Shown piece after piece: positions 3,449-55,728 of a DNA stretch of 64,000 nt. The notes under the pieces are model-generated. The model worked only from the letters and a program-made list of their open reading frames with translations, made no database searches and was not told the DNA's origin. Position 1 is the first letter of the stretch. Each line of letters opens with the position of its first letter. Both the position numbers and the translations under genes were made by a program. The stretch lies in the IMG/VR virus record IMGVR_UViG_3300045988_069849, positions 162,273 to 226,272 of that record; one strand, 5' to 3'. The DNA is from a virus.

Positions 3449-3461
3449 ATCATTGTATTAT

Positions 3462-3662: not shown

Positions 3663-3689
3663 ATTGTTTAAAATATTAATTGTTCATTT

Positions 3690-5506: not shown

Positions 5507-5507
5507 T

Positions 5508-7234: not shown

Positions 7235-7379
7235 CTTAAGAGCATCCACAACCTATACGTTTATGTCCATGGTGGTGATTATCACAGAATCCTCCACAGG
7301 TACGGAACATCGCTAGTAATCTCTCAGCCTCCATGAATTGTTTAAAGCATATTAAATAATCTATAATGTTAAGAGTCAT
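7235..7379 (-). CDS. small Cys/His-rich protein (MTLNIIDYLICFKQFMEAERLLAMFRTCGGFCDNHHHGHKRIGCGCS)
   Basis: Manual translation of a short ORF. Too short for the ORF track. Confidence 0.3.
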
Positions 7380-7481
7380 CCATATGAAATCTCGAGCAAA
7401 TATATCTGCTTCCTAATCTCTAGTTAGACACTTATTTAGTAAAGCATCAAAGAGTTTCTTACAATAATTAATGTAACACTA

Positions 7482-7967
7482 CTACAAGTTTCCTGTAAAG
7501 AAAACATCTACCTTACATTTTTTTATAGTAGTTCCTTCTATGTTTCGTTCAAGAACTTCTTTAACTGTACACTCTTCTAGCTTACCTTCTACTTCTTTAT
7601 ATAATTTTTCTCCATCAGTAACATAGATAGTCTCATAGTATTCCTTGTATTCGTCCGATGAATTTTCATACCATTTCATATTAGGAATAATGATATGGTC
7701 TACTACGTAATAACCATCATCCTTGACCTTAAACATACACGAGTCTAAGTCTTCTGTATGGTCATTAAGTAGGACATCTATCAGAGTAGCATCACTTATA
7801 CTAACTTTGATGATAGTATTCAAGGTAGCACTCTCACTATACTTATAGGAGTCGTAAGAAGTTACTACCTCTACATCTTCATCAATATACTAGCCATATT
7901 CTTTTGAGAAATCTTCTATCAGTATTTCCCCATTAATTTGGGTATGTATATCAATACTAAATTCCAT
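7482..7967 (-). CDS. late protein (~161 aa), one in-frame TAG
   Basis: ORF-track fragment 7482..7823 extends upstream through a TAG to the start MEFSIDIHTQINGEIL. Confidence 0.45.
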
Positions 7968-7980
7968 ATTGTAATAATTA

Positions 7981-8709
7981 AGACTCAATAGGCCACTAGC
8001 CATATTGAGCAGGGGTAGAAAAAGGTTTCCATTTACCTGCTTGTCTTATTCGTCTAGACATGAAGACGGAAGTAAATGATAAACTAATATCTTGAGGATA
8101 ATCTGTCCAGATATAAGAATATCCATCTGGGGTCGGAGGTAGTTTATCTAGTCCAGAAGAAGGCTGACCATTCCAATAGTAGTTATAGTCATATGCCTTT
8201 AGAGAAGTAACTTCTGTAGTTTCTTTCCCTTCAGCATCTATATACAGCGGATTTCCGTCCTCATCTGTTTTCTATTTATATTCTATAACTGGTGTTATTC
8301 CCTCGGTTCTAGTATATATAGTCTATATAATAGTAGAGACATCACTCGCTACTATTTCATAGATAGTAGTTCCCTATGATTCATCAGCTCCCTAAAAAGT
8401 AAATTTAGTTCTTTTCCATATATACGGATTCTCTTCTGTTGGAAGCTCAAAAGTATCAGACCACTACTTACTTGATAATTTTATTTCAGATTCATCGGCA
8501 GTATTAGCAGGGAGATAATGTATTTTAATAATAATACTATTAACTGCTTCACTTGAACCGGATAAATCTGATACCTACTTAAATAATTTTTTTAGGTCGT
8601 CTTCTACATTTGATTTAGAACCGGAAGCATTACTTATAATTACTGTCCCATCAGAGATAGGATAAATCTACTGCTAATCTTTGTTGTATACAATTGTTCC
8701 AGTTGCCAT
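7981..8709 (-). CDS. late structural protein (~240 aa), multiple in-frame TAG
   Basis: Manual translation MATGTIVYNKD[Q]QIYPISDGT... It starts directly after the portal stop. Confidence 0.4.
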
Positions 8710-8710
8710 A

Positions 8711-10882
8711 TTAATGTATTTGTCTTATTTTGTCATTATATGGATTTCCATCATGAAGCTAAGCCAACTCTATTTCAGTTCTTTTTTCTTCAATATCCAT
8801 TTGTCTATCTTTATAAGTAGAATCAGACTGAGCTTTAAGCCAGTTAACTTTATATTCTAACTGCATCTTCTACTATTCTAATCCTAGTCTCTATTCATCT
8901 AAGCTTTCAATCTTTTGCTGAGCTTTCTATAATTCTTGCTATAACTACTGAGCCTATTGAGAAGTTTCTTCTAATTTTTCTTGTAGTTGCTGAAGCTGAT
9001 TATTTTCCTCTTTGCGAACTTGAACAGCTTTCTTAACCTTATATTTAAGGTCTGTCAGACTCTTAGATGTAAGAGCCTCAAAAATAATATCTGGGTCCAT
9101 CTGTTGACTTTTTACGAACTCTGGAATGATTGCTTTTATAGTCTATAGATCTTCCATCACTTCTGAACTAGCAGTAATATGAATATCGTAGTCAGTAACA
9201 GTAAAATACTCAGGAAGTGCGGTGAATATCTGTTGATATTTATCCCCAAGTATAATAGTTCCAGTTAATCCTTTCTTATAAGTAACTTTAGCCTAATTAA
9301 GACTATCTAGTAGTATCTCGCAGGTTATTAAATCCATCTGCTAAAAATAGTGCTTAGTTACTATATACGAGTTAGCTACTCCCTACTTAATATTAGTAAC
9401 TGCATCTCTAGTTTCTATACCGTTAAGTCGTTCCCTAAATACTCCAGTTATTGATGATGTAGTTTGTTCTACTGATTGAATAGCTAATTCAATAGCCTAT
9501 ACAGCCTATGCTTTTAAGGTATCATCAAATCCGTTATATATCTAGTTTGGAGCTTGCTGTCCATCATTCCTACCTTCTTGGCTTGAGTCTATCCACATGA
9601 TACCACCTTTTTTATAGGCTAACCATTTTTGTACTCGTTCTGGCCATTTAACTCCTAAGTTGGTAGGCAACAGAGACATATCCATAATAACTCCGGCAGT
9701 ACCACTATTAGCTATTAGATTATCTCTATAATAGTTTAATAAGTCGTATCTATCCTACAGATGTGCACATTTTAATATAAGAGAATAAGGCTACTAAGAG
9801 CGATTTAAGAAATATACTCCATTTACCGATAAAGAACAGAAGTTGGGATTATCTTTAGATCTCATAACAGTCTTGTCTAATCCTCTAAGAATATATATCT
9901 CTTCTCCTATTCTAATAGTATTGTATCTCTACATCACAAAATCATCATCTGTTTCAATCCATTCAACATCATAGACTGGGATTAACTAGAACCTATGAGC
10001 ACTATATTCATTGTCTGGATAGCCGGGAATGGTTTCATGATTCTAATCTTCATTTACTACTGTACAAGTATCTCCATATACTCTTCTATAAACAGCAGCT
10101 GAATCATCAGCTCGCCATTCATCTTTTAGTCTTCTTAAATCTTCTCTAGATATTTCTTTGCCATATTTAGCTAAAATCTAACTCTTACTCATCCACTTTC
10201 TTACTACAACTCTATATGAGTTCCTTACATATGGAGATTCTGGATTTCTATCAACAAATGTATTAAGTGGGTTTAATACCTCTATTTCAATATTAGTTCC
10301 AGAAGCCGATGATTTCACTCTAAAGAATGTATAACCAGTAATTAATAGGTCTGTTAGTAACTAACGTAACTTAGTAATTAAATCGGTTTCTCTGGATTGC
10401 ATAATATAATGTACTATATTCTAAGCTGCAATTTCATATTGAGAAATAAAGGATTGGTCAATATCCTATATAATTTTATCTAACTAAGTCTTTACAGCTT
10501 TATCAGTAATATCCTTGCCATCAATAAACTTAAGAATTGAATTACTTAAATGGTCTTTCAAAAACTTTACTATTCCCTTGGTTATTTCTAGCTATTTTTC
10601 TCTTGTTATATTACTGATAGTATCTGAATCTTTGCAAGAAATTTTCGGAAGTATAGGAGTTCCTAAATATTCTCCAACTAGAGCATCTACGTGTTTCTTT
10701 AATAAAGGCGTAAACTCTACCGAAGTGGGGCTACCTATTCCGAAGTTTTCTTCCAGATAACGGAACTATTCAGGATCTCTTTTACCATTATAATAATTAT
10801 AAGCTTTCTGTAACTCATACTTATCATATACAAGTTCCGCAATAGCCTCGTTTGTCTTGTCTATCAATTCCTTCTCTTTCAT
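8711..10882 (-). CDS. putative portal protein (~724 aa) with a Q-rich C-terminal coiled coil; about 25 in-frame TAG
   Basis: A single frame runs from ATG 10880-10882 (MKEKELIDRTNEAIAELVYDKYELQKAYNYYNGKRDPE...) to TAA 8711-8713 when TAG=Q. It sits immediately downstream of terL and its size is portal-like. No motif-level proof. Confidence 0.45.
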
Positions 10883-11102
10883 AACATAAATTATGTTGTT
10901 CTGGAGGAAGTTTAGTAGCGTTATAATACTTAACTCTTTGTAACTTCCTACTTCTTAATTCTTCCTTAATAAATGGCAGAAATTCTTCGTCTGGTAAATC
11001 TGCTATTATTACTAATGGCATTTCTGACCTATCAAAGTTAAAAGAGACTTTATACCCAACTGGGTCTAAACTCTCAATATCTAGTCCGCCTATATACTCC
11101 AT
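10824..11102 (-). CDS. possible small ORF in an alternative frame, spanning the terL/portal junction
   Basis: ORF-track 10824..11285 is an uninterrupted 153 codons. It overlaps the terL 3' end and the portal 5' end in a third frame. Only the part downstream of the terL stop could be an independent gene. Confidence 0.2.
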   Translation of the reverse strand: MEYIGGLDIESLDPVGYKVSFNFDRSEMPLVIIADLPDEEFLPFIKEELRSRKLQRVKYYNATKLPPEQHNLCYEREGIDRQDKRGYCGTCI

Positions 11103-13437
11103 TTTGTACAAGTCCCTCATATATTCTAGGATCACTTGTTTCAACTCTGTATGGGTCATCATATTCGTTTCTTTGCATATTAAGTTCAGGAGTTTTCTTA
11201 GTTGGAATAACTCCAAATCTTTTAATTCCTCTCTCGTCGTAATAGTAACCAAAATCTTGGAACTATTCAACTTCTTTCTCCACAAGTACGGGCTGTCTTC
11301 CTGATAGCTCTTGGTCTGCCAACTCAGTCATACCTACAGCGGCTACAATATCATACTTACCCTTATTTTCATCATTATATGCAGTAAACTATTCTAGCAT
11401 TTCTTCGAACCATATAGTATGGCAATAGTCTTCTATAAAGGCGGCTGTTAAATCAGTATGCTATTCAATTATAGTTTTTGTAGCAGGAGTTCCATACTAT
11501 TTAGTAGTTCCATTTCTGACATCAGTTAGAGTAGCTCTTGGGCGCTTCATAAAATAGTTAAGGCATCCTTTTTCTCTAGCCCAAGTAACCATACCCATAC
11601 GAGTAGCTTCTATATTTATTTTACAATTATAATAGCGAGCTAAACACATAGCTATTTTATAGGCTTCTCTGATGTCTCCAGGTCTATCCTTGTACATAGC
11701 AACATACTGAGGGTCATTCATACCAAACGCACGTTTCTTAATCGTTATGCAGAAATCAGACGGATCTCTGGTTTCCTTAGAAGTCTAATTCGCTCCAATA
11801 TCAATACCGTCTATACCTGCTACGTATAAGTCTCGCATCTCTTTATAAACTGGAACTTCAAAATCCTAGCCATTATTTTCTGCTTCCTATCTAAGCTTTT
11901 CCATTTGTTCTTTATATAAGTCAGACCATATTGGATGCTCTAGAATTTTTACTTTACCATTGCTATTAGGAATCCATTTAAAGCCATCAATGTTATCCTA
12001 AGTATGTTTATTATTTTTGTAAAAATAATCAATATAACCACATTCGGGTCTTGGACCAATTTGTTTAAGTCTTATATTAGCTATCTATTCGGCAACTAAA
12101 ATTTTATTAAATTTATTAACACCTTCTAGATTAAATGCTTCTTCTGCATTCCAACAACGTTCAGCACATTTCTTTAGGTAGTCTTCTGGTACAGCTAACA
12201 GATTATCTCGCTCCTCCTATAAGAATTTCTTATATTCTACAGTATTACACACTCCTCTGTGGTCCATAAATTCTGGATTCAAAGATTGTATAAAGTATGG
12301 AATAAAGAATCCACTCTCTATAGTAGTCCCATCCTAAGTCCAATTATGTCTAAATGGAAGAATCTTATATGCTCTTGGATTATAGTAAATCTTTTTTAAG
12401 CCCTCTAGAGGAGCACCCATATCACCGCCAGTACCTCCAAACAACATTGTTCCACGAGGCATACCTTGAACTTCACAAAGTTCTTGACCTTGTACCACAG
12501 CGGTATCAAGTCCAGGCCAGGAACCAGCTTCATCATATATTAATAAATCTACACGGTCTCCACGAATGTTAGATGGTTTAGCTCCGTTAATTGCTACAAC
12601 CTCAGATTTAAATCCTACGTCTTCAAACTAACCATTTATTTTGATTTGTTTACCTGATTTCTTTCTCAAATCCTGGTCAATAAGTCGCAATTTAAAAAAT
12701 CCTCCTCCAGTACAGGTATTTAAGAATGTAAGAGCATTGTCAAACTTACTAAAGGTACCCTTAAGGAAGGTATCATTAAAGCAAGTAATCATAACCCTAC
12801 TTCTTCTAATAACAGAGTACATACGAGCAGAAAGAGAGGCGTTTATTTCAGAGAATCCAATAGAACGAGCTTTCATTAAAGCTGCGTGCTTGTGTAGCAC
12901 TCTAGCCATCTATAGATAATGAAAGAACATATAATGTGATGCAAAGAATATTGGGAAGTCATTATCAGTACCCTCACCAGAGGCTTTCTACTAGTCAATA
13001 GTAGGTAACTAATAGAAATTTAAGAAGAAGTAATTATCTCCAGTAATGGTGTATCCATTAACTGTCATTCCATACTTACATCTTCTATATTGCTCTTTCC
13101 AAAATTCGTTGTACCGCTTACTATCTCTAAGGTAGGGACAGTATTGACCAGTTCGTTTATATACTTCCCTAGTCTCGGTAAACCAATCTGGATTAAAGTC
13201 CAATCCATGAGTTTCGTCAATAGGTCTGTATCCAGTTATTTCATAAGATAAGGTAGGGTCAAATACTTCTATTTTATCTCCTATTTTAACATCCCAATAG
13301 TCAGAATTTCTGACCCTTTCCTCTCTTATTTTCTATACTAATTCTCTAGCTTCTTTAGCATCCTCTTTCTATTCTTTTTCTCTTACCTAATCTACAATAT
13401 TCTATATTTCTTCAGGTAATATCTTTTTTCTTGGCAT
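11074..13437 (-). CDS. terL: terminase large subunit (788 codons incl. stop), ~10 in-frame TAG
   Basis: One frame (lower coordinate = 1 mod 3) runs from ATG 13435-13437 to TGA 11074-11076, joining ORF-track fragments 13009..13203, 12628..12909 and 11497..11721. It contains the Walker B-like LLIYDEAG and an FGGTGGDMG motif. TAG codons sit in sensible positions, e.g. EEI[Q]NIVD[Q]VREKE[Q]KEDAKEARELV[Q]KIREE. Confidence 0.8.
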
Positions 13438-13439
13438 AA

Positions 13440-14006
13440 TTAAAAGTCTCCTGGGTCAAAACCATCCACAGCTCCAGCTCTAACAGTAGATTGTTCAGTA
13501 AGTTCTTTCTTAACCTAGTCTTCTAGTGTTATGAGTTCTTCATGAACTTTGTGAAGGGTAGCCATTTCCTTCATTACTTTTTCAGCCTGGAATACTGGTT
13601 TGCCGTTATTATCACGCTCATTTAAATCTACAATAGTTTCGAAATAATCAATAAACTAGTCTGCAGCTCTTTTAGCTGCTTCTAGTAATTTTATTGACTT
13701 GTTTGAATCTTGTAACGCTCTGTATTTCCTACAAGCTTCTCTAAATATAGGGTCATTAAATTCTGACTCTGTCAATCCAGAATCACTAATAGCTTCGTCA
13801 TGTCGTTCATGTTCCGAATACTAACTGTACGGACTTTTCCAGTCTATAGCTAAATAAATGTAAGATAGTTCTCTAGTAGCTCTATCCTTTTCTGCAGATT
13901 TATCCCTCTAGATTAAAGCCTTAAATTCCTTAACTAGCAATATCTCTGGTTCATTTATTTCTAGCTATTTAGTTAAAGTGTTATAGTTAAATACATTCAT
14001 AATCAT
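13440..14006 (-). CDS. putative terminase small subunit (~188 aa), 5 in-frame TAG
   Basis: Lies immediately upstream of terL. Manual translation MIMNVFNYNTLTK[Q]LEINEPEILLVKEFKALI[Q]RDKSAEKD... The assignment is positional only. Confidence 0.4.
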
Positions 14007-14037
14007 TAATCATTATCATACACATTAGATAATCTTA

Positions 14038-14616
14038 TTATTTCTTTTTCATTTTGGAACCGCACTTATTGACTTTCATTTTGGAACCACAAGCGTCTTT
14101 CTTAGCATATTGTTTTCTGTCAGGAACCCATTTTCCTCCCTGGAAATTACCCTTATGTCCCTTATTGGCCATAGTTTCCTAATCATTGTATTTATTGATT
14201 GATATAGAATCTCTTGAGGCTTCGTCTCTAGCAGATTTCATATCTTTCTTATACTAAGCTCTTCCAGCCTTAAATTTATCAACTTCATTAGCTTTCTTAG
14301 TAACTTTAGTTCCTTTTTGTGCTTTCTGGCAAGCTTTACAGATTCTACCGCCTTGCTTAAAATATACAAGCTCTTCTCCTTCTGGACATACTCCTTTTAG
14401 CTTCTTATAATACTCAAGCTTAGCTCCAAGCCTAGCCATTACTCCTCCTTGCATTTTCTGCATAAATTCCTGATACTTAGCTTTAATGCCGTCTTCTCCT
14501 AATTGTTCAGCATAAGCTTGTAAATCCTATTCAGATTGTACTTGTATTCCCTACGCAGCGGCATCTTGTATTAGATATGCCATAAATGCTTTTTGTAATT
14601 CTTCCTAGTTAGCCAT
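14038..14616 (-). CDS. basic Cys-rich protein (~192 aa), 3 in-frame TAG
   Basis: ORF-track 14254..14463 ends on TAG and continues. Start MANWEELQKAF at ~14616. The C-terminus ...CGSKMKKK ends at TAA 14038-14040. Confidence 0.4.
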
Positions 14617-19292: not shown

Positions 19293-19306
19293 TATTAATT
19301 TTGGCG

Positions 19307-19378
19307 TTGCCCTACTAGGATTCGAACCCAGACTAAATGATTTAGAGTCATCTGTGCTGACCATTACACCATAGGGCA
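19307..19378 (-). tRNA. amber suppressor tRNA, anticodon CUA (reads UAG), tRNA-Gln-derived
   Basis: Cloverleaf: acceptor tgcccta/tagggca, D-arm gtgt-aatggtca-gcac, anticodon stem gatga/tcatt with loop CUCUAAA (positions 34-36 = CUA), variable tagt, T-arm ctggg-ttcgaat-cctag, discriminator A. D-arm and T-arm are nearly identical to tRNA-Gln(UUG) at 34205-34276. Confidence 0.8.
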
Positions 19379-20683: not shown

Positions 20684-21666
20684 AAGATTGGGGAGAAATC
20701 CCCTTTCTTTTACATACAAATAATCTTTGTAGAAATGGACATAAGAAAAAAGTTTAAGACTATAAAGTGTTTGTATAATTGGGGCATAATCTATGACCCA
20801 AAGACTAATGAAAAGTTAAATTTCAAATCCAAACGTGTTTATTGCGTAACTTCTTGGGCTTGGATTATGACCTATCAAAAGTCAGAAGAAGATATTCCTG
20901 AGATAATTAGGATACTCTTTGTAGATTAACTCTAAGGTACTATGAGTTTTAAATAAAGTGCCCACATGAACCCCATCATCGGAACGTTGGTTAACGGGGA
21001 AAACAACATCACAACAAATCAAATCAAAGTTTTTGTTTAGTTTTAGGATTGTATCTGGCAGCTTGGAAAGACAAGCAAAATCTTTATACCTATCTGCTAA
21101 TAGGTTTAGTGTTCAACGCGAAAATTCGGTAAAGGAAGGAGAGAAATTGTCCACTAAAAAGACCCTCAATTTCCGGACTTTTTCCGATTTTCAAAAAATC
21201 CGCCAGAGTAGGAGTTATATAGCTCACACTCTCTATAGACATTATTTAGTATTTAGCCTATAAAAAGGCAACAAAAAGCGAGGCTACGCAGAAGAGCCTA
21301 ACACCAAAAATAACTGCTACAAATTCTATGTGCATATTCGCAAACTTGAGCACTATAGGATTTAGGTTGAGCTGTAAGGATTGGTCACTTATAGCAATAT
21401 TATGAGTACTGCTGATATGTCAGTGACCGTACATATCACATATAAAATATGTTATACAATTATGTTAGAAGTTGCCAGGTCTAAGAAGCCTGATTAAAAT
21501 CTCTAGATAGTAAGAGAGAACCTCATAAGGGTTCATTTTCCATCTCGAATCTATTCGCAAGTTTTGAGATTAGCTACCTCAGAATTTAGTGAACGTTGAT
21601 AACGTTGTATGTCTGGAAAACATACTAAATAATCTCCTATCTTATACTAGTTGTCAAGATAGGATT

Positions 21667-21737
21667 TCCCCATTAGTATAATGCTATTGCGCCTTCCTCT
21701 AAAGAAGGAGATTCTGGTTCGAGTCCAGAATGGGGAA
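21667..21737 (+). tRNA. tRNA-like with anticodon CUA (second candidate amber suppressor), non-canonical D-arm
   Basis: Acceptor tccccat/atgggga (U1-A72), anticodon stem ccttc/gaagg with loop CUCUAAA, variable agat, T-arm tctgg-ttcgagt-ccaga, discriminator A. The D-arm lacks G18G19 and pairs weakly. Confidence 0.4.
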
Positions 21738-22097
21738 CTTGGTATTTGAGGACTACAACTACTTGTAGACTCTGTTGCAGTTAAAGATTATAATGGGTAC
21801 GCCCTGAGACTAATGCAGAGCATCTCTTATGAATAGAGGTGTCTTATCGTGAGATAAGGCAAAGTATTGTGAGATTGAGAGAATTACTAGCTAAAATGTT
21901 AGAAGAAGACCCAGATTCAAGTAGCAATATCTACAAAGAAATATGGGGAGCTTATACTGCTGGGATGAACTCCTTGCTCGAGTAGCAACAATTCCAAGCT
22001 TGGTGAATTAAAACTAGCTAACCTAATTACTCTTTATAAGGTTGAGAATGTAAAAAGAGAATTGGAATGGTAAGCCCATCTCCCTTCGTCCTTTGCT

Positions 22098-22153: not shown

Positions 22154-22645
22154 ATGAATACATTAGCATTAGATCATGTAAACAAGCGCGCAGAATTCGT
22201 AATGTCGTTTACTATTCCTTTCAAAGCAGTTGAAGATCCAACGTCGCAGGCCAAGTGCTACAGTCCGCATGAAGTAATTATGGCATGGCGAGAGGTGTGC
22301 ATCAAAGCATTACGAATGAGAATCGATGCCTGTATGGAAATGTTGTTCCGCAACAAGGACAGAGTGATAGGCTCGGACGAACGTGGCGTTTTGTTTAAGA
22401 AGAAGAATGGAAACATTCACCACTTTTCTCATGCTAGCTGTTTTGCTATGGAGGCTTTCATAGAGATATTGGAAGAAGCAGAGAGTGCCGGGGACATAAC
22501 TTTCGATGCTCTTCAAATACAGCAACTGATGAAGGCTTTGTACTGGATTCCAGACGAACTGAAGAACGATCATCAGGGAATAGGTTTCGGAGAACTAATT
22601 GACTGCCTGCTCTGCATTTTTAGCAACTCTCTGATAAACGAGTAG
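22154..22645 (+). CDS. hypothetical protein (163 aa)
   Basis: ORF track. Confidence 0.6.
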   Translation: MNTLALDHVNKRAEFVMSFTIPFKAVEDPTSQAKCYSPHEVIMAWREVCIKALRMRIDACMEMLFRNKDRVIGSDERGVLFKKKNGNIHHFSHASCFAMEAFIEILEEAESAGDITFDALQIQQLMKALYWIPDELKNDHQGIGFGELIDCLLCIFSNSLINE

Positions 22646-23172
22646 GAACTATCGTAATGATAGCTCTAATAGTTTCATCATTTAATTAGCATATGAAATA
22701 TAAGATTGAATTTAACTATCGTTACGGTAAAGACTATGTATACTGTAATGAATACCATGAAGATGAGCGGTTTATACAGCCACTTAATTCTAATGGTAAA
22801 CCCTTATGTACTATTGCAAAGACTAATATATTATCTATTAGAGAATGCAAATAACGCCAACGCTATAAAGATTGGCAAATTTAAGATTGCACATGGAGAT
22901 TGAACGCTGAAACATGTGGTAACTAAATAGGAGAGGTCTTGTAAGTTCAAGGTAGTTCCGCTTAGTGCTTGCCTGCTAAGTATCACTACACAGTCAGTTG
23001 GAAGACTAACATTTAAAAAACTCAATAACTTCCCAAGACATTGAGGGCACCAGTTTCTTATGAATAAATACTCTGAAAAGCCTATATATGGGCAGGACAG
23101 AGCCTCGAAAGTCTTAGACCAGAGAGATAGTAAGTTTTAGGTGTAAAATGCGATTAATAAAAGAAAAAGATT

Positions 23173-40299: not shown

Positions 40300-40665
40300 A
40301 TGATAGTACAACCTATTGGAAAGTTTAAACTTACTTATGCAAATGGTATAAGTCAAGTTAAGCTGTTAATAACTCAGGAAGACTACAAGTCTATTGTCAA
40401 ACCTATATTAGATAATATAGCTGAGTTAGAGGCACAGCGAAGTGGGATTAATAAAAAGAGTAAAAGGTATAAGGAAATTTCGGAAAAACTTAGAGAACTG
40501 AAAAAACCTATATCGGAACTTGGAGAGTTTTTTACAAGCACGTCTCCTCTTGGATTAGCACTATGGAGTAGTCGCTTCCCAAACTTGATACTTCCGCCTC
40601 AACAAGGCGGTGGACATTTTGTTAGATTTGAAAAATTAGATTTGTATGAAAATAAGGAAGGTTAA
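40300..40665 (+). CDS. hypothetical protein (121 aa)
   Basis: ORF track. Confidence 0.5.
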   Translation: MIVQPIGKFKLTYANGISQVKLLITQEDYKSIVKPILDNIAELEAQRSGINKKSKRYKEISEKLRELKKPISELGEFFTSTSPLGLALWSSRFPNLILPPQQGGGHFVRFEKLDLYENKEG

Positions 40666-40902
40666 CTCTACTATCAAAAGACGAGTTCTTAGGGAAGTGT
40701 CTAGAGAGTGCAGAAAGAGGAATATGATGGACAAGAAAGGTGAAATTCCAAATGATATTAAGGACATATGGGAAGCGATTAAAGTATTAACAAAGAGAAA
40801 TAAACAATTTGCTGTTAGATATGCATCAATGTGATTATTGTTGTTGGTATAATCCTGCTAGTGGGTGCTGTAATTGTCCATACGTAATGAGACGGAAAGC
40901 GT

Positions 40903-41100
40903 GTGAGAAGGCTCGTAAACAGAAAGAAGAAAATGAAAAGCCTAGAAAGTTATAGCATATTTACTAAGCCTAAACTATCTAATCCTGTATCATGGGAGGA
41001 TATGAAAGAATTTAATACCCATATGAAGGAAGTAGTTAGAGACTATAAGATTAGGCAAGCTAAAGCTAGAGAAAGCGCTAAGAAAGTAATTATTAAGTAA
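40903..41100 (+). CDS. small basic protein
   Basis: ORF track. Confidence 0.4.
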   Translation: MRRLVNRKKKMKSLESYSIFTKPKLSNPVSWEDMKEFNTHMKEVVRDYKIRQAKARESAKKVIIK

Positions 41101-41364
41101 ATACTAACCTGGCAAGGTAAAAATCCAGTCGGGGTCTGTTAGCATTTATGCTAATAAGTCGAAGCCAGTCCCTGCGTAGTTATAATAGGCAAGCTGAACT
41201 TGAGAATTGTTAAACGGATGGTTGCCGTTAAAAGATATATAGTTACAAACTTATGTATCCAGAATATAACTAATTAAAGACTTATCTGGTGATGTTAGGT
41301 TATGGAATCCTAACAGTGGAAATTTATGAGTTATGTCACCAATTAAAAAGAAAATCTCAAACAT

Positions 41365-41437
41365 GGGCCGTTAGCTCAAATGGCTAGAGCGCTGGTTTTG
41401 CACACCGGAAGATAGGGTTCGAGTCCCTGCGTGTCCA
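41365..41437 (+). tRNA. tRNA-Ala-like (TGC) with G3-U70 but an imperfect acceptor stem (possible pseudo-tRNA)
   Basis: D-arm gctc-aaatggcta-gagc; anticodon arm ctggt-ttTGCac-accgg; T-arm taggg-ttcgagt-ccctg. Acceptor gggccgt vs cgtgtcc pairs only at positions 1-4. Confidence 0.45.
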
Positions 41438-41455
41438 CAACAAAATTAAATAATT

Positions 41456-41641
41456 ATGAAAGTATACGTAGTCGTAGTGAATCATCATCCAGCTAATGCG
41501 CCTCAGAACTATAAAACTGAGTGTCAGATATTTCTGGATAAAAAGGAAGCCGAAGGCTATAAGAAAGCCAAGGAAGAAGAATATCCCATACGTTGGGGAG
41601 GTGAATACAATCATTGTGAAATATTTAAAAAACATTTGTAA
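41456..41641 (+). CDS. small protein (61 aa)
   Basis: ORF track. Confidence 0.4.
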   Translation: MKVYVVVVNHHPANAPQNYKTECQIFLDKKEAEGYKKAKEEEYPIRWGGEYNHCEIFKKHL

Positions 41642-41644
41642 TAT

Positions 41645-41717
41645 CGCGGGGTGTTAGCAGAGGTAGCTAGTCAGGCTCATAACCTGAAGGTCGAGGGTTC
41701 GAGTCCCTCTCCCGCTA
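41645..41717 (+). tRNA. tRNA with CAT anticodon (fourth CAT copy)
   Basis: D-arm tagc-agaggta-gcta; anticodon arm tcagg-ctCATaa-cctga; T-arm gaggg-ttcgagt-ccctc. Exact acceptor pairing is ambiguous. Confidence 0.55.
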
Positions 41718-41719
41718 CT

Positions 41720-41735
41720 AGTAATTAATTAGATA
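41720..41735 (+). promoter_or_regulatory. conserved motif GTAATTAATTAGATAC (copy 3, one mismatch)
   Basis: Follows a tRNA and precedes ATG 41751. Confidence 0.25.
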
Positions 41736-41750
41736 CTTAATTTTTAGATT

Positions 41751-42176
41751 ATGAATTACGAAAATCTTACCAAAGAAACTCTCCCTGTAGAGTTTCAAAA
41801 CAGAATCGAACGATTTAATCGTCTATTCTCAGCTGCAACCGACCATTCCTTCGAAGAGGATGACTTGTTTGAGTATGAAATGTTATGTATAAAGCAAGCT
41901 CTTTCATTCTCGGAATTTTTCCAAGATTTCGGTGATGAACAGTATCAAGACTTCTTGAAGCAATATGAGAGCTTATACGACTTAGTTGATGCTATTAAGG
42001 ACAAACTTCAGTTCTTTGATAACGGACATACTGGAAACTCTATGAGCATGAGTTGGCTTTTATTCCGAACTTATCGAGAAAGACCGGAATTAGTTCCGTA
42101 TATGCACGGATGCTTGGCTCAGCTCGTTGGGGATGAAGGCTATTATGATGACCGTTCAGATGTTCCAGAACTATGA
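41751..42176 (+). CDS. hypothetical protein (141 aa)
   Basis: ORF track. Confidence 0.55.
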   Translation: MNYENLTKETLPVEFQNRIERFNRLFSAATDHSFEEDDLFEYEMLCIKQALSFSEFFQDFGDEQYQDFLKQYESLYDLVDAIKDKLQFFDNGHTGNSMSMSWLLFRTYRERPELVPYMHGCLAQLVGDEGYYDDRSDVPEL

Positions 42177-42469
42177 GCGTAATACAACAGGTCTACTTAG
42201 CTGAATCAGGCAGTTCTATTTACATAAAGGGGATTAAACCTGATAAAGAGAATGAATATTCTGGTGAGATTACTCTAAATGGTAATCCCACTAGATTAGA
42301 GAGAAAAGAACGTTACCATATAAGTAACGGTATGCTTGTTACAGATAGTTATCATATCCCTATGGAGTTCATTATTAGCTTCTTGCAGGCTAACGGATGT
42401 GTTCAAGAAGGAGAAGATGGCAAGTCGTATGTTGTTTTAAGAGAAGTAGAATTTAAATTGAATAACTAA
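42173..42469 (+). CDS. hypothetical protein (98 aa)
   Basis: ORF track. Confidence 0.5.
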   Translation: MSVIQQVYLAESGSSIYIKGIKPDKENEYSGEITLNGNPTRLERKERYHISNGMLVTDSYHIPMEFIISFLQANGCVQEGEDGKSYVVLREVEFKLNN

Positions 42470-43050
42470 TGTTATCAGTATTATATAGCGAATATGAGCT
42501 GTGGGGTTGTCCTAATTGTGGGTGCGATTCTGTTATAAGTAGTGGAGTTTCTGGAGGAGGTCTAACATCTGGAACTTGTAGACATTGCAAGTTAAAATTT
42601 GAAGTTAGAAGCGAAAATCCAATGGGAATAGTCAAATATGGCTGCCATCCAGAAAATCCCTCAGACCCGAAATCTAAATGGGTTATGGAAAGCGCAATCA
42701 GAATTGAACATCCTAGAAAAGGTATTCCTGCATGGAATTGGGAACCAGTTGACGAACGTCCAGAAGAAGGAGAATATTGGAACTCTCGTGGTCCTGGCTA
42801 TCCAGATGTTTCTGGCTTTGTAAAGACCAAAGCTGCTGGTGAGCGTATTCTAGCTATGGTGCATGAAGTGTTAGGAACTGACAAGTGTAAGACTTATCTA
42901 GATTTCAGACCAAGTGAACCAACGTGGATTCAATTCAAATTTCATAAAGACGAGTTTGATATAGAGAAACTAGATTCTCTTACTCGTGATAGTGGAATAA
43001 TTACTAAAGACATAATCAAACAATGTATTTATGGCAAAAGTAGTAAATAG
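42469..43050 (+). CDS. zinc-ribbon-containing protein (193 aa)
   Basis: ORF track; CPNCGC...CRHCKLKF. Confidence 0.55.
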   Translation: MLSVLYSEYELWGCPNCGCDSVISSGVSGGGLTSGTCRHCKLKFEVRSENPMGIVKYGCHPENPSDPKSKWVMESAIRIEHPRKGIPAWNWEPVDERPEEGEYWNSRGPGYPDVSGFVKTKAAGERILAMVHEVLGTDKCKTYLDFRPSEPTWIQFKFHKDEFDIEKLDSLTRDSGIITKDIIKQCIYGKSSK

Positions 43051-43282
43051 GGCCTCTGATATAATCCAACTTAAAGACCTAAAGGATGGGGAATTTGCAG
43101 AAGTAATAGAATGGTTTGAGGATGGAACAGTATCTAACGGAGATATAATTCAAAGATGTGGACTTGCACTATTTATATTAGGAAGTTGTTCTTACTATCC
43201 TGAGATATTTAGTAAGGGTGCTAGAGACTATACTAATACTAAGTTACGAACACTACCTGAGGGTACAACTATAATGTTATAA
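43031..43282 (+). CDS. hypothetical protein (83 aa)
   Basis: ORF track. Confidence 0.45.
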   Translation: MAKVVNRASDIIQLKDLKDGEFAEVIEWFEDGTVSNGDIIQRCGLALFILGSCSYYPEIFSKGARDYTNTKLRTLPEGTTIML

Positions 43283-43322
43283 TTTCTTTTTCCAGTTTTC
43301 TAATTAAAGATAAACTGGGTAT

Positions 43323-43884
43323 GGGCCTACTTGGATTTGACAGGCGATTACAAATTATAAGGACGTGTAGAGCGCAATCTCTTTAAACGAAGAAAAAACA
43401 ATAAATGCTACTTATAGCGAAGTAAGAATGGCAGCCTAAGCTGCTGGCTTGTTGGTAGACACTATTAACTAAGTCGGGTTACGGGAGAGACCTAGAAACA
43501 GAAGAGGTTGAGTATATTGATATAATGGAGAGCTAGGCTCTAATCCTAGTAATATACTCTTAATCAGAACACTCTAAGAGTTAGTAAGACTGAATCTCCT
43601 ACGTCATAAAACAGATGGAAGATGTGTTCCATGAGATGTGACGAATCTCTAAAGTATCATCCCGTTCTCCAACGTAAATGGAGTGGTGGAACGTTGACTT
43701 CGGTCAGCCCTATAGTTTGGTAGCTTGTAGATAAGCATCTAGAGAAATACTTAGTATGGACTCTTGTAAGACTTATAAAACTACCTAAATGCTAGAACTC
43801 CCTAGCTGATGTAATAAAAATGAGACGCACGTTATCCTTGTAACGAGGGTTGTTTGGACACGGGTTCGACTCCCGTTAGGTCCA
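43323..43884 (+). ncRNA. ssrA: candidate phage-encoded tmRNA (ssrA-like), ~560 nt
   Basis: 5' end gggccta ttggatttgacaggcg resembles the tmRNA 5' consensus (acceptor + GGAUUCGACGGG). 3' end ggac-acggg-ttcgact-cccgt-taggtcc-A forms a T-arm plus acceptor 3' strand. The 7-bp acceptor gggccta/taggtcc has G3-U70, the tRNA-Ala identity element. An internal tag-like ORF starts at GCA: AISLNEEKTINATYSEVRMAA followed by TAA. There is no protein-coding ORF across ~560 nt. Confidence 0.5.
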
Positions 43885-43887
43885 CAT

Positions 43888-43932
43888 AATAGGGCTATAG
43901 CTCAACTGGTTAGAGCACCACATCAATAATAT
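43888..43932 (+). pseudogene. truncated tRNA 5' fragment (acceptor + D-arm only) fused upstream of tRNA-Ile
   Basis: gggctat-a-gctc-aactggtta-gagc-a then a degenerate anticodon arm and no T-arm. Confidence 0.35.
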
Positions 43933-44004
43933 TGGGATGTAGTTTAACGGTTAGAACAAGAAACTGATAATTTCTAGACGGCAGTTCAACTCTGTCCTTC
44001 CCAA
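43933..44004 (+). tRNA. tRNA-Ile (GAT)
   Basis: Acceptor tgggatg/cttccca (one mismatch); D-arm gttt..gaac; anticodon arm agaaa-ctGATaa-tttct; T-arm ggcag-ttcaact-ctgtc. Confidence 0.65.
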
Positions 44005-44021
44005 CTAATACTGTAAATAAT

Positions 44022-44570
44022 ATGTAGAAAATTTCTGAACAAATCAAACAACAAGTAAAAGTTCTTAGAGAAAATGGATATTCTTATGATAAAATATCTG
44101 AAGAATTGTCTATTGGAAAAGGTTCTGTTTCTAATATCTGTAAAGAATTTGGATTATGCCAAAAGATAGTTGAGCTAACTCCAGAGAAAATTATAGAAGT
44201 TTAGAAAATGTATGACGAAATAGGTAACATAAAAGAGGTTGCGAGACTCTCTGGAATATCCTATAATAGACTTCGAAACGTTATAGTAAGCAAAAAGATA
44301 ACTCCTAAAACTGGCTACGACAACGTTAAAGAATATAGAAAGCGTACAAAATAGGAACTAGTCGAGTATAAAGGTGGAAAGTGTTAGATATGCGGCTATA
44401 ATAGATGTAATGAAGCATTAGACTTTCATCACCTCGACCCAAGCGAGAAAGATTTCTCATTATCTGGGTAGCACAAACCTATAGAACTTTTAAAGAAAGA
44501 GGTAGATAAATGTATACTTCTCTGTTGTAGGTGTCACAGAGAAATTCACGCAGGAGTAATTGCGCTATGA
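44022..44570 (+). CDS. HNH homing endonuclease with 6 in-frame TAG codons, embedded in the tRNA array
   Basis: Manual translation with TAG=Q: M[Q]KISEQIKQQVKVLRENGYSYDKISEELSIGKGSVSNICKEFGLCQKIVELTPEKIIEV[Q]KMYDEIGNIKEVARLSGISYNRLRNVIVSKKITPKTGYDNVKEYRKRTK[Q]ELVEYKGGKC[Q]ICGYNRCNEALDFHHLDPSEKDFSLSG[Q]HKPIELLKKEVDKCILLCCRCHREIHAGVIAL, stop TGA. CxxC...HH...CxxCH is an HNH/zinc-finger motif. Confidence 0.65.
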
Positions 44571-44682
44571 TGTGGAGGTTATCAGTTCAAGTCTGATTAG
44601 CCCTACAAAACCGCCAGCTCACGCGGTATATAAGAAAGGATTGCCGGACTCGCAGGTGTAACGAGATAAATACCTGCATTTT

Positions 44683-44755
44683 CGAGGCTGTGGTGTAATG
44701 GCTTGCATATCACACTGTCACTGTGAAGGTTGGGGTTCGAATCCCCCAGTCTCGG
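44683..44755 (+). tRNA. tRNA-Asp (GTC)
   Basis: Acceptor cgaggct/agtctcg; anticodon arm tcaca-ctGTCac-tgtga; T-arm tgggg-ttcgaat-ccccc. Confidence 0.6.
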
Positions 44756-44762
44756 CATTTAT

Positions 44763-44835
44763 TCCCCTGTAGTTTAGTTGGTTAGAACACGTGATTTGTA
44801 ATCTCGAGACCTCGGTTCGAATCCGAGTGGGGGAT
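44763..44835 (+). tRNA. tRNA-Thr (TGT)
   Basis: Acceptor tcccctg/tggggga (two wobble pairs); D-arm gttt..gaac; anticodon loop ttTGTaa; T-arm ctcgg-ttcgaat-ccgag. Confidence 0.65.
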
Positions 44836-44862
44836 CTTAACCATTAAATCAGATTAATTTTT

Positions 44863-45537
44863 ATGACTAGATTAGAAAAGTATTTAGTAGCAACTGCTAC
44901 TGAGATTATCGAAGCGGAAACAACTGTTTCTCGCTACTTTGTCATTGGAAACGTCAAAGTTAGAGTATCAGACCATTTAAGTAAAATGAGTGATGCAGAC
45001 TTACAAGTAATTATCCCATTGAACGGAGGGACTAAGTATATAGTTACTGTTAAGGATAGTCCTGGAAAATTTCTTGTATGGAATGCAACTCAAATAAAAG
45101 ACTTTATTCCTTCATTGCAGATTATTAAGGGCTTGAAGGAAGGAGTGCAACTTAAGCCAAAACCTAAAGACTCTGCAGTTCAGAAGATTCAGCTAGCATT
45201 AAATAATAGTAATACCGATGGAGGTTCGTTAACGTTTGATGGTACTATTATTGAGTCTAGATTGAAAGAAAAGCAACTTACTTCCAAACAGCGGGAAGTT
45301 TTCAGGAGAACTAAATCTACTTGGGATATTTCTCAGATTGGAACATTACCCAGTATGATTAAAGTAGATTTGGGATTGTCAAATGGTTCTGTAAACGAAG
45401 ATGTGCAGATATTTCTAACTTGTACATCTTTAACCTACAAAGAAATTCTGAACATTTATAAAATAATAGTTGTTGATAACCGTATGGTTCCAACTATTAA
45501 ACTGTTGCAAGAAGCTTATAGCTTGATTGTGCAGTAG
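44863..45537 (+). CDS. hypothetical protein (224 aa)
   Basis: ORF track. Confidence 0.6.
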   Translation: MTRLEKYLVATATEIIEAETTVSRYFVIGNVKVRVSDHLSKMSDADLQVIIPLNGGTKYIVTVKDSPGKFLVWNATQIKDFIPSLQIIKGLKEGVQLKPKPKDSAVQKIQLALNNSNTDGGSLTFDGTIIESRLKEKQLTSKQREVFRRTKSTWDISQIGTLPSMIKVDLGLSNGSVNEDVQIFLTCTSLTYKEILNIYKIIVVDNRMVPTIKLLQEAYSLIVQ

Positions 45538-45540
45538 GAT

Positions 45541-45612
45541 AGCGCCATCATCTAATGGTTAGGATTTAGGCTTTTCACGCCTGCCATACGGGTTCGAATC
45601 CCGTTGGCGTTA
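45541..45612 (+). tRNA. tRNA-Glu (TTC)
   Basis: Acceptor agcgcca/tggcgtt; D-arm atct-aatggtta-ggat; anticodon arm taggc-ttTTCac-gcctg; T-arm acggg-ttcgaat-cccgt. Confidence 0.7.
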
Positions 45613-45669
45613 CTATGTACCCCAGCAGCGAAAGTTGTTGGGGTATTTTTTGTTTAATATAATTAATAA

Positions 45670-45990
45670 TTGATGAGAAAAACATTTGAGTTTGTAAAGG
45701 TTGGAGGAGTCTGGTTCTATTGGTGGCCAGATTATGACGGAACACCAGAGGAACTAGCAATGGTTGGTGGTGCAGATGAACTTCTTGATTCTCTAGATAA
45801 TAAGTTTGTTAGATTGCAGATGGTTGACCCAGCTGCAGCTAAGATAACGTTGTCTAAAATTGAGGAGGATGAATGTGGAGCAACTTACTTATGCAAAAGT
45901 AAGAATTACAATGACAGGGTATGGATTTGTGCTGTAACTCTATCAGTATTCGGGGAATATCCTCAAAATATTTACCTAAAAGATATGTAA
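45670..45990 (+). CDS. hypothetical protein (106 aa)
   Basis: ORF track. Confidence 0.5.
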   Translation: MMRKTFEFVKVGGVWFYWWPDYDGTPEELAMVGGADELLDSLDNKFVRLQMVDPAAAKITLSKIEEDECGATYLCKSKNYNDRVWICAVTLSVFGEYPQNIYLKDM

Positions 45991-45993
45991 AAA

Positions 45994-46419
45994 ATGAAAA
46001 CGTTAAATGAGATTTTAGACAATTACAAAGACTATGCCGTAGTTCTCGATGACCGTTTCGGTTCTAGATTAGCAAAGTTTTTAACAGAAGAGCAGTTAGA
46101 AAAAATAGGCTTCAAGTACGATGGTGATGAGCCTTATCCAGAGCCTAAGGAATGGACTAGAGAGAATATCCTAGAGCAACTTAAGTCTGACGTGGAGTTT
46201 GGTTTTGAGAAGGCTCTAGACCAGAGAGGCATTTCAGCTAGCCTAATGTTCTACGTGGTACTAAGGTGGAATCAAGTTCTAGAAGAGGGCTTAGAGAATT
46301 ATCCTGAAGAGAATTATGCTATGTATGGGTTGCCTTTGTTTAAGGCTACTGCTGTAAAGTATGGATGGGAGAATCCTATAGGCGACGATAATGGGGACGA
46401 AGAGTTCTACAATGAATAG
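45994..46419 (+). CDS. hypothetical protein (141 aa)
   Basis: ORF track. Confidence 0.55.
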   Translation: MKTLNEILDNYKDYAVVLDDRFGSRLAKFLTEEQLEKIGFKYDGDEPYPEPKEWTRENILEQLKSDVEFGFEKALDQRGISASLMFYVVLRWNQVLEEGLENYPEENYAMYGLPLFKATAVKYGWENPIGDDNGDEEFYNE

Positions 46420-46607
46420 CGCTATGAAGGAATCTTCTATACTTAAAGCAATTTCTGACGCTATTGAAGAATACGAGGAAAATCAACAAAGACGAATAGA
46501 CCTGTTAGAGAGTAAAATTCTGCTATTTGAGAGAGAAAGGGAGGCTTTTATTCGGCATTTGAGAGAAGGAAACATTCAATTATTAAAGGATTATCTAGGA
46601 ATTAAAG

Positions 46608-54711: not shown

Positions 54712-55728
54712 ATGAAGAAAATTTTTAGTATTATTTGTTTGTGTTTAATGTGCGTGTTTGCTAGCGCACAAGTTGTTGAAACTGGAAGTTTGAAAGATAA
54801 CTGGTATGTTTCTGGTAATGTAGGTACCACAATTTGGGACAACTCAAGAAGTTGGGCTGAACCTCATGATGTATTAGTAAATATTGCGGTGGGTAAAGAA
54901 ATTACTCCTATCTTCGGACTAGAGTTAGATATGATGGCAGGTATGAATCAAGGCAGTAAAACGTTCTTCGATTCCCATAACCTTACAGCTAATGTAACTA
55001 CTAATCTAACTAATCTTATTTGTGGATACGAAGGCTCTAGACGTTTATTTGAGCCTGTATTACTGATAGGTGCTGGTTGGTATCATACTTATGGTGATGT
55101 TTATAATAATGTATCTGCAAGAGGTGCAATTAGATGCAACTTTAATATTACTGATAGTTGGGCACTAAATGTTACTCCAGAGTATATGCTACTTCCAAAG
55201 ACTACTCCTCTAAATCATGAAGTAAATGTTTATATAGGAGCCACTTACCGGTTTAAGTCTAATAAAGGAAACTTTCCTATGATGAAACTATATAGTGACG
55301 CTGAAGTAGAAAGTCTTAATGCTGCTATTAACGAGTTGAGGGTTAAGAATAGCGAATTGGAATCTCGTAAACCAGTAGAAATAATTAAGACTGATACTAT
55401 AGTAGTTACTAAGGTAGAACTTCTTACACCTAAAATTCAGTTTTTACAGAACTCTTCTGAAATCTCTACAACTTCTAATGTTGCAGTATCGGAGTTAGCA
55501 GCTTATATTTCAAATAGTGGTAAGTCATATATGATTGAAGGATATGCTTCTGAAGAAGGTCCAGTAGATTTTAATGACAACTTAGCTGTAGCTAGAGCAG
55601 AATCTATGAAGAAGGCCCTTATCAGTTATGGCGCTCCAGAGGATAAGCTTATAGTTAAAGGCTGCGGAAGCACTACTGAGTTTGGAGATAGAGAATTTAA
55701 CAGAATCGTAATCGTAACAGAACAATGA
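54712..55728 (+). CDS. OmpA-family outer-membrane protein (signal peptide, beta-barrel-like N-domain, C-terminal OmpA domain)
   Basis: MKKIFSIICLCLMCVFASAQ is a signal peptide. The C-terminal YMIEGYASEEGPVDFNDNLAVARAESMKKALISYG...NRIVIV is an OmpA-like peptidoglycan-binding motif. Confidence 0.7.
   Translation: MKKIFSIICLCLMCVFASAQVVETGSLKDNWYVSGNVGTTIWDNSRSWAEPHDVLVNIAVGKEITPIFGLELDMMAGMNQGSKTFFDSHNLTANVTTNLTNLICGYEGSRRLFEPVLLIGAGWYHTYGDVYNNVSARGAIRCNFNITDSWALNVTPEYMLLPKTTPLNHEVNVYIGATYRFKSNKGNFPMMKLYSDAEVESLNAAINELRVKNSELESRKPVEIIKTDTIVVTKVELLTPKIQFLQNSSEISTTSNVAVSELAAYISNSGKSYMIEGYASEEGPVDFNDNLAVARAESMKKALISYGAPEDKLIVKGCGSTTEFGDREFNRIVIVTEQ

Follow-up and report, generated by a model that had tools for sequence, protein, structure and literature searches.

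A long one-piece tmRNA gene with an enlarged pseudoknot domain in phage DNA with a split genetic code

We analyzed a transfer-messenger RNA (tmRNA, ssrA) gene in a 64,000-nucleotide stretch of virus DNA, positions 162,273 to 226,272 of IMG/VR record IMGVR_UViG_3300045988_069849 (hereafter the window, to which coordinates refer unless stated otherwise). The original prediction, made from the sequence letters, had proposed a candidate phage tmRNA with tRNA-Ala-like ends at positions 43323-43884 of the plus strand. This observation was confirmed: the region is a genuine one-piece tmRNA gene that scores above the threshold of the Rfam tmRNA model RF00023, has covarying ends among its relatives, and lies in phage DNA. 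Judged from its sequence, it is likely to be a functional phage-encoded tmRNA, most likely kept for added ribosome-rescue capacity during infection. The gene comprises 561 nucleotides (nt) plus the discriminator A, starts with GGGCCTACTTGGATTTGACAGGCG and ends with GGACACGGGTTCGACTCCCGTTAGGTCCA, and has the following parts.

43323-43884, plus strand: whole tmRNA gene, delimited by the full-model RF00023 match and sharp family boundaries
43323-43329, plus strand: 5' strand of the acceptor stem, GGGCCUA, pairing with 43877-43883; G3 at 43325
43330-43340, plus strand: D-loop-like segment CUUGGAUUUGA, aligned to the Rfam consensus UGGAUUCGAC and counterpart of the conserved GGAUUCGAC block
43341-43368, plus strand: 5' strand of helix 2, in sections 43341-43349, 43355-43363, and 43364-43368
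43369-43382, plus strand: hairpin AGAG-CGCAAU-CUCU at the usual place of pseudoknot 1 (PK1), by sequence reading
43407-43439, plus strand: tag reading frame with resume codon GCU at 43407-43409, peptide ATYSEVRMAA, and stop UAA at 43437-43439, from the Rfam alignment and ARAGORN at -ps80
43429-43446, plus strand: helix 5, UGGCAGC-CUAA-GCUGCUG, invariant, with the tag stop codon in its loop
43447-43826, plus strand: enlarged pseudoknot domain of 380 nt, its helices counted on alignment A2
43827-43856, plus strand: 3' strand of helix 2, in sections 43827-43831, 43835-43843, and 43848-43856
43860-43876, plus strand: T-arm ACGGG-UUCGACU-CCCGU, with an uninterrupted 7-nt T-loop of the GGUUCGANUCC type
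43877-43884, plus strand: 3' strand of the acceptor stem, UAGGUCC, plus the discriminator A at 43884; U70 at 43881

The RF00023 match extends over 43323-43887 and covers model positions 1-374 with 62.1 bits against a curated threshold of 47 (E-value of 7.5e-22 for the window), which answers the Rfam check proposed with the original prediction. Its statement that the ~560 nt hold no plausible open reading frame (ORF) also held. Stop-free runs do not exceed 44 codons under the standard code, or 77 codons if TAG is taken as sense; whether the code is standard or reassigns TAG or TGA, no credible ORF spans the region. A recoded protein gene was thus excluded, since no code gives a long ORF and the length differences within the family are not multiples of three. 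An anticodon arm is absent, and 43323-43884 yields no tRNA call from the tRNA model or from ARAGORN.

The ARAGORN check gave a divided result. The default run over the window reported 29 tRNAs and no tmRNA, and the relaxed setting -ps80 returned the tag ATYSEVRMAA under a spurious permuted-form gene call. In local runs, the program found the 514-nt relatives and shorter phage tmRNAs and missed all family members of at least 546 nt. The miss in the window is therefore attributable to a length limit and is no evidence against a tmRNA. Two other gene forms were rejected. A permuted two-piece tmRNA (RF04321) gave only partial matches, of 24.8 and 23.3 bits, both below the threshold of 47, and the order of the parts is standard; an intron-form tmRNA is contradicted by the intact T-loop UUCGACU and the lack of a group I intron model match. 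Rfam intron families gave no match at E ≤ 1 in 43250-43935 and none at E ≤ 0.1 in 39000-46000. A sigma-70 promoter scan stayed at background level, and the terminator-scan matches inside the gene correspond to helix 5 and a UUCG hairpin of the body.

The tRNA-like ends were recovered as predicted, with one correction. The 5' end is present at 43323 as GGGCCTA C TTGGATTTGACAGGCG, from which the first reading had dropped one C, and the 3' end GGAC ACGGG TTCGACT CCCGT TAGGTCC A was found to finish at 43884. The first and last seven bases pair into the proposed 7-base-pair (bp) acceptor stem with G3-U70. Among 42 distinct sequences of the family described below, 99% of acceptor cells are paired, G3-U70 occurs in all 42, and the discriminator A is invariant, all listed 3' ends finishing in ...UCCA. 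The ends were also found to covary in homologous phages: the acceptor occurs in four versions (GGGCCTA/TAGGTCC, GGGCCTG/CAGGTCC, GGGCCAT/ATGGTCC, and GGGCTTG/CAGGTCC) and the T-stem in five (ACGGG/CCCGU, GGCGG/CCGCC, GAGGG/CCCUC, CGCGG/CCGCG, and GACGG/CCGUC), all of them complementary. The T-arm is 100% paired with two-sided changes in three of its five pairs. In helix 2, two-sided changes affect 12 of 23 pairs, with 92-100% of cells paired, and the same helix is predicted by RNAalifold and by single-sequence folding; the single-sequence fold (z = -2.0) additionally contains the acceptor stem, helix 5, and the T-arm. The D-loop-like segment CUUGGAUUUGA is invariant in the close family.

The tag frame reads GCU ACU UAU AGC GAA GUA AGA AUG GCA GCC UAA, and its first codon falls on the consensus resume position of the Rfam alignment. 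The original prediction had read the tag from a GCA codon. That frame, AISLNEEKTINATYSEVRMAA followed by TAA, exists from 43374 to 43437-43439, and only its last 10 codons are the tag; the first 11 of the 21 codons lie inside the PK1-site hairpin and an A-rich leader and are unconserved as a frame. In MT837398 (84% identical), a 1-nt deletion brings a TAA into the upstream frame, and the last ten codons stay open as AEIAPVRMAA. The prediction had also stressed that the tag ends with TAA rather than the recoded TAG; the UAA is present, and nothing about it is special. TAA is the common stop of tmRNA tags.

Tag variants in the family comprise ATYSEVRMAA, AAYSEVRMAA, AEIAPVRMAA, AEIDYNRMAA, AERSDYRMAA, AERSDVRMAA, AERSEYRMAA, ANTSVRMAA, GNTTYRMAA, GNTEVRMAA, GETEGFRMAA, and GETEGYLRMAA, the last read from the sequence by hand. 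They are 9-10 codons long, or 11 in two GETEG groups by the same by-hand reading. All begin with Ala or Gly and end with RMAA, and the stop is TAA, or TGA in three members, never TAG. One of the two search patterns used to collect relatives covered the RMAA codons and helix 5; the first set was found by the 5' motif. Hence, the invariance of RMAA and helix 5 in the second set is partly built in, although the 5'-motif set has the same ending, and helix 5 offers no covariation partly for that reason. The tag frame thus acts like a coding region in which the sequence varies and the length, stop, and end are kept.

Relatives were collected from IMG/VR by a scan for the 5' motif TGGATTTGACAGGCG, which gave ~35 loci of the long-tmRNA family along with other phage tmRNA groups, and by a complete scan for the exact 22-mer AGAATGGCAGCCTAAGCTGCTG, which gave 63 contigs of up to about 200 kilobases (kb). 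These yielded 53 complete copies (42 distinct) of 514-601 nt from large human-gut viral contigs. Pairing was assessed with named helices and slid-partner controls, as an automatic all-against-all helix search was swamped by G-U-rich false helices. In alignment A2, formed by the 22 closest sequences, the 91 tested pairs, which make up 16 helices, are formed in 95.5% of cells, compared with 36-50% when partners are slid by 1-3 columns, and two-sided changes occur in 17 pairs compared with 1-5; none of 500 shuffles reached the observed values. The 42 distinct sequences gave 90.9% paired cells (36-51% with partners slid by 1-2 columns) and two-sided changes in 32 pairs (6-15 when slid). Half of these 32 pairs fall in the defining helices, with one in the acceptor stem, twelve in helix 2, and three in the T-arm.

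Of 11 relatives tested, RF00023 calls a tmRNA in 10; their scores are 56-96 bits, and the longest match has 604 nt. At least three unrelated kinds of flank give way to common sequence exactly at G1 and separate again immediately behind ...UCCA, so the conserved unit coincides with the predicted mature RNA. The two-sided changes and the intact tag frame, kept despite strong divergence, indicate purifying selection on both structure and frame. GenBank phage records contain only two similar fragments, both unannotated. A scan of bacterial genomes for TGGATTTGACAGGCG gave at least 120 stretches; among the matches listed, nearly all were chance hits and no bacterial tmRNA was present. Different tmRNAs of 392-490 nt, one with a 31-residue tag (ANVYNAEDMMSIPTSITRVAVAEEAELLMAA), were seen in other large viral contigs (130-296 kb) with the 5' motif UGGAUUUGACAGGCG, including loci L004, L019, L021, L063, L065, L067, L087, L094, L106, and L034, among others.

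The length of the RNA lies largely in the domain downstream of helix 5, for which the RF00023 alignment needs a 273-nt insertion in the pseudoknot region. Its modules are listed below.

43451-43469, plus strand: hairpin with covariation or conserved pairing in the close family
43476-43493, plus strand: pseudoknot whose loop bases 43484-43488 pair with 43595-43599, with 3 two-sided pairs in the close family
43510-43559, plus strand: expansion hairpin between two conserved anchors
43571-43581, plus strand: hairpin
43602-43649, plus strand: candidate pseudoknot module, by sequence reading only
43663-43693, plus strand: helix element with covariation or conserved pairing
43695-43706, plus strand: UUCG hairpin with covariation or conserved pairing
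43719-43723 with 43781-43785, plus strand: helix with covariation or conserved pairing
43791-43806, plus strand: hairpin with covariation or conserved pairing

The pairing of GGAGA (43484-43488) with UCUCC (43595-43599), whose register is uncertain in distant members, was preferred over the Rfam pairing ACGGGAG/CUCUUGU across the 273-nt insertion, which is lost in the L061 type. The place occupied by 43510-43559 holds unrelated inserts of 27, 28, 45, 50, 54, 74, or 75 nt in different family members, most of which close with their own terminal helix (10-11 bp in the 45-, 50-, and 74-75-nt types); this stretch behaves like an expansion segment. No Rfam intron, riboswitch, or other family matched inside the tmRNA body. 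The added length consists of structured expansion hairpins and pseudoknot-like modules, not a T-loop intron. The central modules are also shuffled among relatives; L108, for example, combines the AEIAPVRMAA tag with the body of the window type.

The search for PK1-PK4 suggested with the original prediction found one covarying pseudoknot downstream of the tag and no canonical layout. The body modules exceed the canonical three pseudoknots, no one-to-one match onto PK2-PK4 was achieved, and the PK1 site looks like a hairpin. The 4-bp stem at this site (helix 3) is invariant in the close family and reaches 6-7 bp in L013, L078, and L112. By sequence reading, other subgroups have a candidate helix 4 of 3-4 bp with one compensatory change (GCA/UGC to GUA/UAC).

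The E. coli one-piece tmRNA (SsrA, RF00023) is 363 nt long. A typical tmRNA has ~350 nt, and the longest in a 2005 comparative set had 425 nt (PMC1168896). The RNA encoded in the window shares with bacterial one-piece tmRNAs the end-paired acceptor with G3-U70 and discriminator A, the T-arm, the GGAUUYGAC-type D-loop block, the long helix 2, probable pseudoknots downstream of the tag, a tag frame that opens at a GCN/GGN resume codon without a start codon and has its stop in the loop of helix 5, and a tag of 10 codons whose C-terminus is a hydrophobic residue followed by Ala-Ala. In contrast to them, it has 562 nt (514-601 in the family), a post-helix-5 domain of 380 nt that is about twice the usual size, a hairpin-like PK1 site, RMAA instead of ALAA, no encoded CCA, and a viral gene. 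Every defining tmRNA feature that could be assessed is present except a clear pseudoknot 1.

Phage tmRNAs are already an established kind: 2.3% of isolate phage genomes have one (PMC9004378), phages account for 79 entries in the 2025 tmRNA database (PMC11915505), and huge phages have been reported to carry a tmRNA together with SmpB (PMC7162821), whereas no SmpB was seen in the present window. Like the reported cases, this one is a phage-borne ssrA gene of the kind often found beside tRNA genes and presumed to sustain hijacked translation; the surveys reporting them used ARAGORN, which is blind to family members of at least 546 nt. The tmRNA of phage Melnitz is in two pieces with a glutamine riboswitch, whereas the present one is in one piece and matches no riboswitch. 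In known tmRNA genes of great length, the excess is due to a T-loop group I intron or to a permuted-form spacer (PMC11915505). The window gene, like the intron-form genes (PMC11915505), is far over 400 nt; unlike them, it has an intact T-loop UUCGACU and carries its extra length in the pseudoknot domain as several structured modules.

The surrounding DNA is that of a phage with a split code, in which late genes are TAG-recoded and the early block uses the standard code. The window encodes a portal protein (8711-10882) and a large terminase (11074-13437) with 20-28 in-frame TAG codons. Minus-strand genes at 39-14616, including the portal, terminase, and reverse transcriptase genes, contain 4-28 such codons each, and plus-strand genes from 20 kb on are mostly free of them. 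Two suppressor tRNAs with anticodon CTA were found at 19306-19378 (minus strand) and 21667-21738 (plus strand). The terminase shares 25-29% identity with its counterparts in crAss-like phages of Bacteroides, Flavobacterium, and Azobacteroides; this sequence comparison places the phage as crAss-like. Compared with the published Zeta crAss-like group (PMC7886860, PMC12386605), matching traits include related contigs of ~185-192 kb, ~30 tRNA genes, CTA suppressors, a reverse transcriptase, and homing-endonuclease traces, so the phage resembles the Zeta group in shared traits.

The tmRNA gene sits inside the tRNA cluster of the standard-code early block, 7 nt upstream of tRNA-Ile in relatives, which suggests co-transcription and RNase P processing. 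Based on the features above, we propose the following course of events. The gene would probably be transcribed together with the neighboring tRNA genes, cut by RNase P at G1, and trimmed at its 3' end. A CCA-adding enzyme, needed because CCA is not encoded, would then complete the RNA; such an enzyme is encoded by a published Zeta phage (PMC12386605). Host AlaRS would charge the RNA with alanine via G3-U70 and the discriminator A, and SmpB, presumably from the host, would deliver it with EF-Tu to ribosomes stalled at the ends of stop-less messages. Translation would resume on GCU 43407, adding Ala and ATYSEVRMAA, and release would occur at a UAA that the phage amber suppressor cannot read through. 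The C-terminal RMAA would most likely serve as a degradation signal, like the bacterial ...LAA.

Demand for rescue may increase when phage nucleases cut messages and when suppressor tRNAs drive ribosomes past TAG stops. That the tmRNA is most likely kept for extra rescue capacity during message cutting and amber suppression is our working hypothesis. In E. coli without RF1, tmRNA tagging deals with TAG-ending genes, according to a passage in PMC11903333 that cites Ma et al. 2018. Moreover, in four standard-code early genes, a TAG is followed 3-9 codons later by a TAA or TGA, as though a back-up stop were in place.

22154-22657, plus strand: early gene with an apparent back-up stop
42469-43059, plus strand: early gene with an apparent back-up stop
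44863-45555, plus strand: early gene with an apparent back-up stop
45994-46446, plus strand: early gene with an apparent back-up stop

In these genes, the TAG probably serves as the stop at the beginning of infection, and after the suppressor has been made, read-through is probably limited by the following stop. Both the tagging in RF1-less E. coli and the apparent back-up stops fit the rescue hypothesis without testing it. We further considered, as a doubtful extension, that the long tmRNA is part of a code-switch kit of Zeta crAss-like phages that clears and RMAA-tags the products of TAG read-through on host messages, with the body as a phage-specific adaptation. If this were true, the UAA or UGA stop of the tag would be immune to the suppressor, and the doubled body might, for example, stabilize the RNA or bind a phage factor.

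Several observations weigh against a functional tmRNA kept for rescue. Sequence reading of the window type found no convincing second stem (helix 4) at the PK1 site; the tmRNA of Oenococcus oeni, which has no helix 4, is a natural precedent (PMC1168896). The score of the window tmRNA (62 bits) is below that of most relatives tested, and CCA is not encoded at its 3' end, where the next bases are CAUAAUA. The use of RMAA as a degradation signal, most likely as it is, was drawn by analogy. The loci of the more distant copies, covered in their early regions only, had no clear TAG recoding, which bears on the amber link. Pfam scans of the 43 standard-code ORFs of the window found no SmpB, as did tblastn with E. 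coli SmpB in the window and in the relatives' loci, where the 64-kb window represents about a third of the genome; a scan of viral contigs for SmpB gave only E. coli copies, most of them at contig ends. Host SmpB is therefore presumed.

Two further points concern relatives. The L235 subgroup (L235, L238, L251, L255, L260, and L258) has an aberrant D-loop-like segment, GGGCCAUACAUGGAAUUGAUUC..., and L235 falls below the Rfam tmRNA threshold, although its acceptor stem, T-arm, and tag GNTTYRMAA are intact. In L075 (IMGVR_UViG_3300045988_063986), the 3' acceptor strand is lost right after the T-stem (CCCGT, then TGGCGTTACT...). Since the L235 type misses the threshold, the gene may be dispensable in some lineages. 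The break in L075, behind which a terminator-like hairpin lies, may mark the edge of an insertion or deletion or may stem from chimeric assembly.

Another explanation, which we consider improbable, is a working tmRNA-like RNA that redirects or blunts host trans-translation instead of supplementing it, for example by outcompeting the host tmRNA with an RMAA tag of different fate or by a body that acts as a sink for SmpB or another host factor. The conserved departure of RMAA from the usual ALAA and the enlarged, modular pseudoknot domain would suit such an RNA, and there are models for it: selective tagging of host proteins was proposed for phage Melnitz (PMC9004378), and in E. coli the endogenous tmRNA is inhibited by a tmRNA-like RNA from mycobacteriophage DS6A that has no tag (PMC11915505). 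The DS6A RNA is likewise phage-encoded with a tmRNA-type tRNA-like domain; however, it has ~65 nt and no tag frame, whereas the window tmRNA has a conserved frame and a full body. A tag frame would be superfluous in a pure decoy, but here it is conserved together with its stop and helix 5, and the tag still ends in a hydrophobic residue and Ala-Ala like degradation tags. The sequence offers nothing that separates redirection from plain supplementation.

That the gene is a passenger, acquired from the host or another phage and drifting without a role in infection, is very unlikely. The truncated L075 copy and the subgroup under the Rfam threshold point in this direction, as does the insertion hot spot around the gene, where relatives have a homing-endonuclease-like ORF and further inserts; tmRNA genes in general are classic targets of integration. 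Nevertheless, every defining helix is kept through two-sided changes in 42 distinct copies with the tag frame intact, and the gene is complete, unlike the 3' fragment left by integration. Lastly, it is hardly credible that the region is no tmRNA gene and encodes instead some other structured RNA whose ends resemble a tRNA, a tRNA-Ala with an intron, or a recoded protein: the silence of default ARAGORN is explained by length, and neither the ~200 nt above the usual size nor a weak resemblance of the 3' end to YrlA (28.8 bits, threshold 69) stands up to the covariation, the full-length RF00023 match above threshold, the uninterrupted T-loop, and the lack of an anticodon arm, tRNA-model match, intron family match, or long ORF in any code.

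The neighborhood of the tmRNA gene showed additional rearrangements. The tRNA-Ile(GAU) gene that is intact in L074, L030, L082, L108, L059, and L061 is split in the window at the anticodon loop by a 648-nt insert.

43892-43922: first half of the split tRNA-Ile
43923-44570: 648-nt insert
44571-44605: second half of the split tRNA-Ile

This insert carries a second, different tRNA-Ile(GAU) (43933-44005) and an ORF with 5 in-frame TAG codons (44022-44570); it gave no group I intron model match, and the ARAGORN intron mode does not call the split tRNA-Ile. Some other relatives have an even shorter 5' remnant of this tRNA, and in some an ~85-nt insert with inverted ends lies between the tmRNA and tRNA-Ile. 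In L090 and L008, an ORF starting MGYIYCITNLINNKRYV directly after the tmRNA looks like a GIY-YIG homing endonuclease; L010, L076, L092, and L028 are further relatives listed for inserts beside the tmRNA. The 74 nt between the tRNA-Ile 3' half and tRNA-Asp (44609-44682) are 97% identical to an unannotated part of cr115_1 (NC_055898.1, 39049-39122). Ribozymes and small processing elements have been reported next to tRNAs in recoded gut phages (PMC10879173), and the 74 nt could be one of these.

Other RNA and protein features were noted at greater distance. A RAGATH-14 match at 21467-21638 (184.6 bits, threshold 149.1) lies 28 nt upstream of the suppressor tRNA(CTA) at 21667-21738, RAGATH-34 RNAs occur within a few kb of the tmRNA in L244, L013, and L112, and a RAGATH-1 hammerhead was found in L246. 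The reverse transcriptase gene (39-1313, minus strand), which has 4 in-frame TAG codons, is possibly part of a diversity-generating retroelement. At least one scanned protein, from a plus-strand ORF of the 20-64 kb block, matches OmpA and outer-membrane beta-barrel domains, which points to a host with an outer membrane; the assignment of this protein to 54712-55728, which matches a 'membrane protein' family in PHROGs, is a guess only.

What appears to be new is an intron-less tmRNA lineage of 514-601 nt with an expanded modular body and an RMAA end, carried by crAss-like TAG-recoding phages, although a curated tmRNA database may already hold similar long sequences. In the open-access literature that we searched on recoded or crAss-like gut phages, a tmRNA was never mentioned; the published Zeta and crAss-like descriptions in it list tRNAs and suppressor tRNAs for phages that are very abundant in the gut. 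Phage annotation pipelines detect tmRNAs with ARAGORN (PMC7162821, PMC12291355, PMC13503771), and because this program misses the long lineage, the frequency of tmRNA in large gut phages is probably underestimated, a detection gap that calls for Infernal-based searches. The lineage shows that the pseudoknot domain can grow by expansion segments to an RNA of 514-601 nt without an intron. By pairing a ribosome-rescue RNA with stop-codon reassignment, it offers a concrete case for why phages carry tmRNAs.

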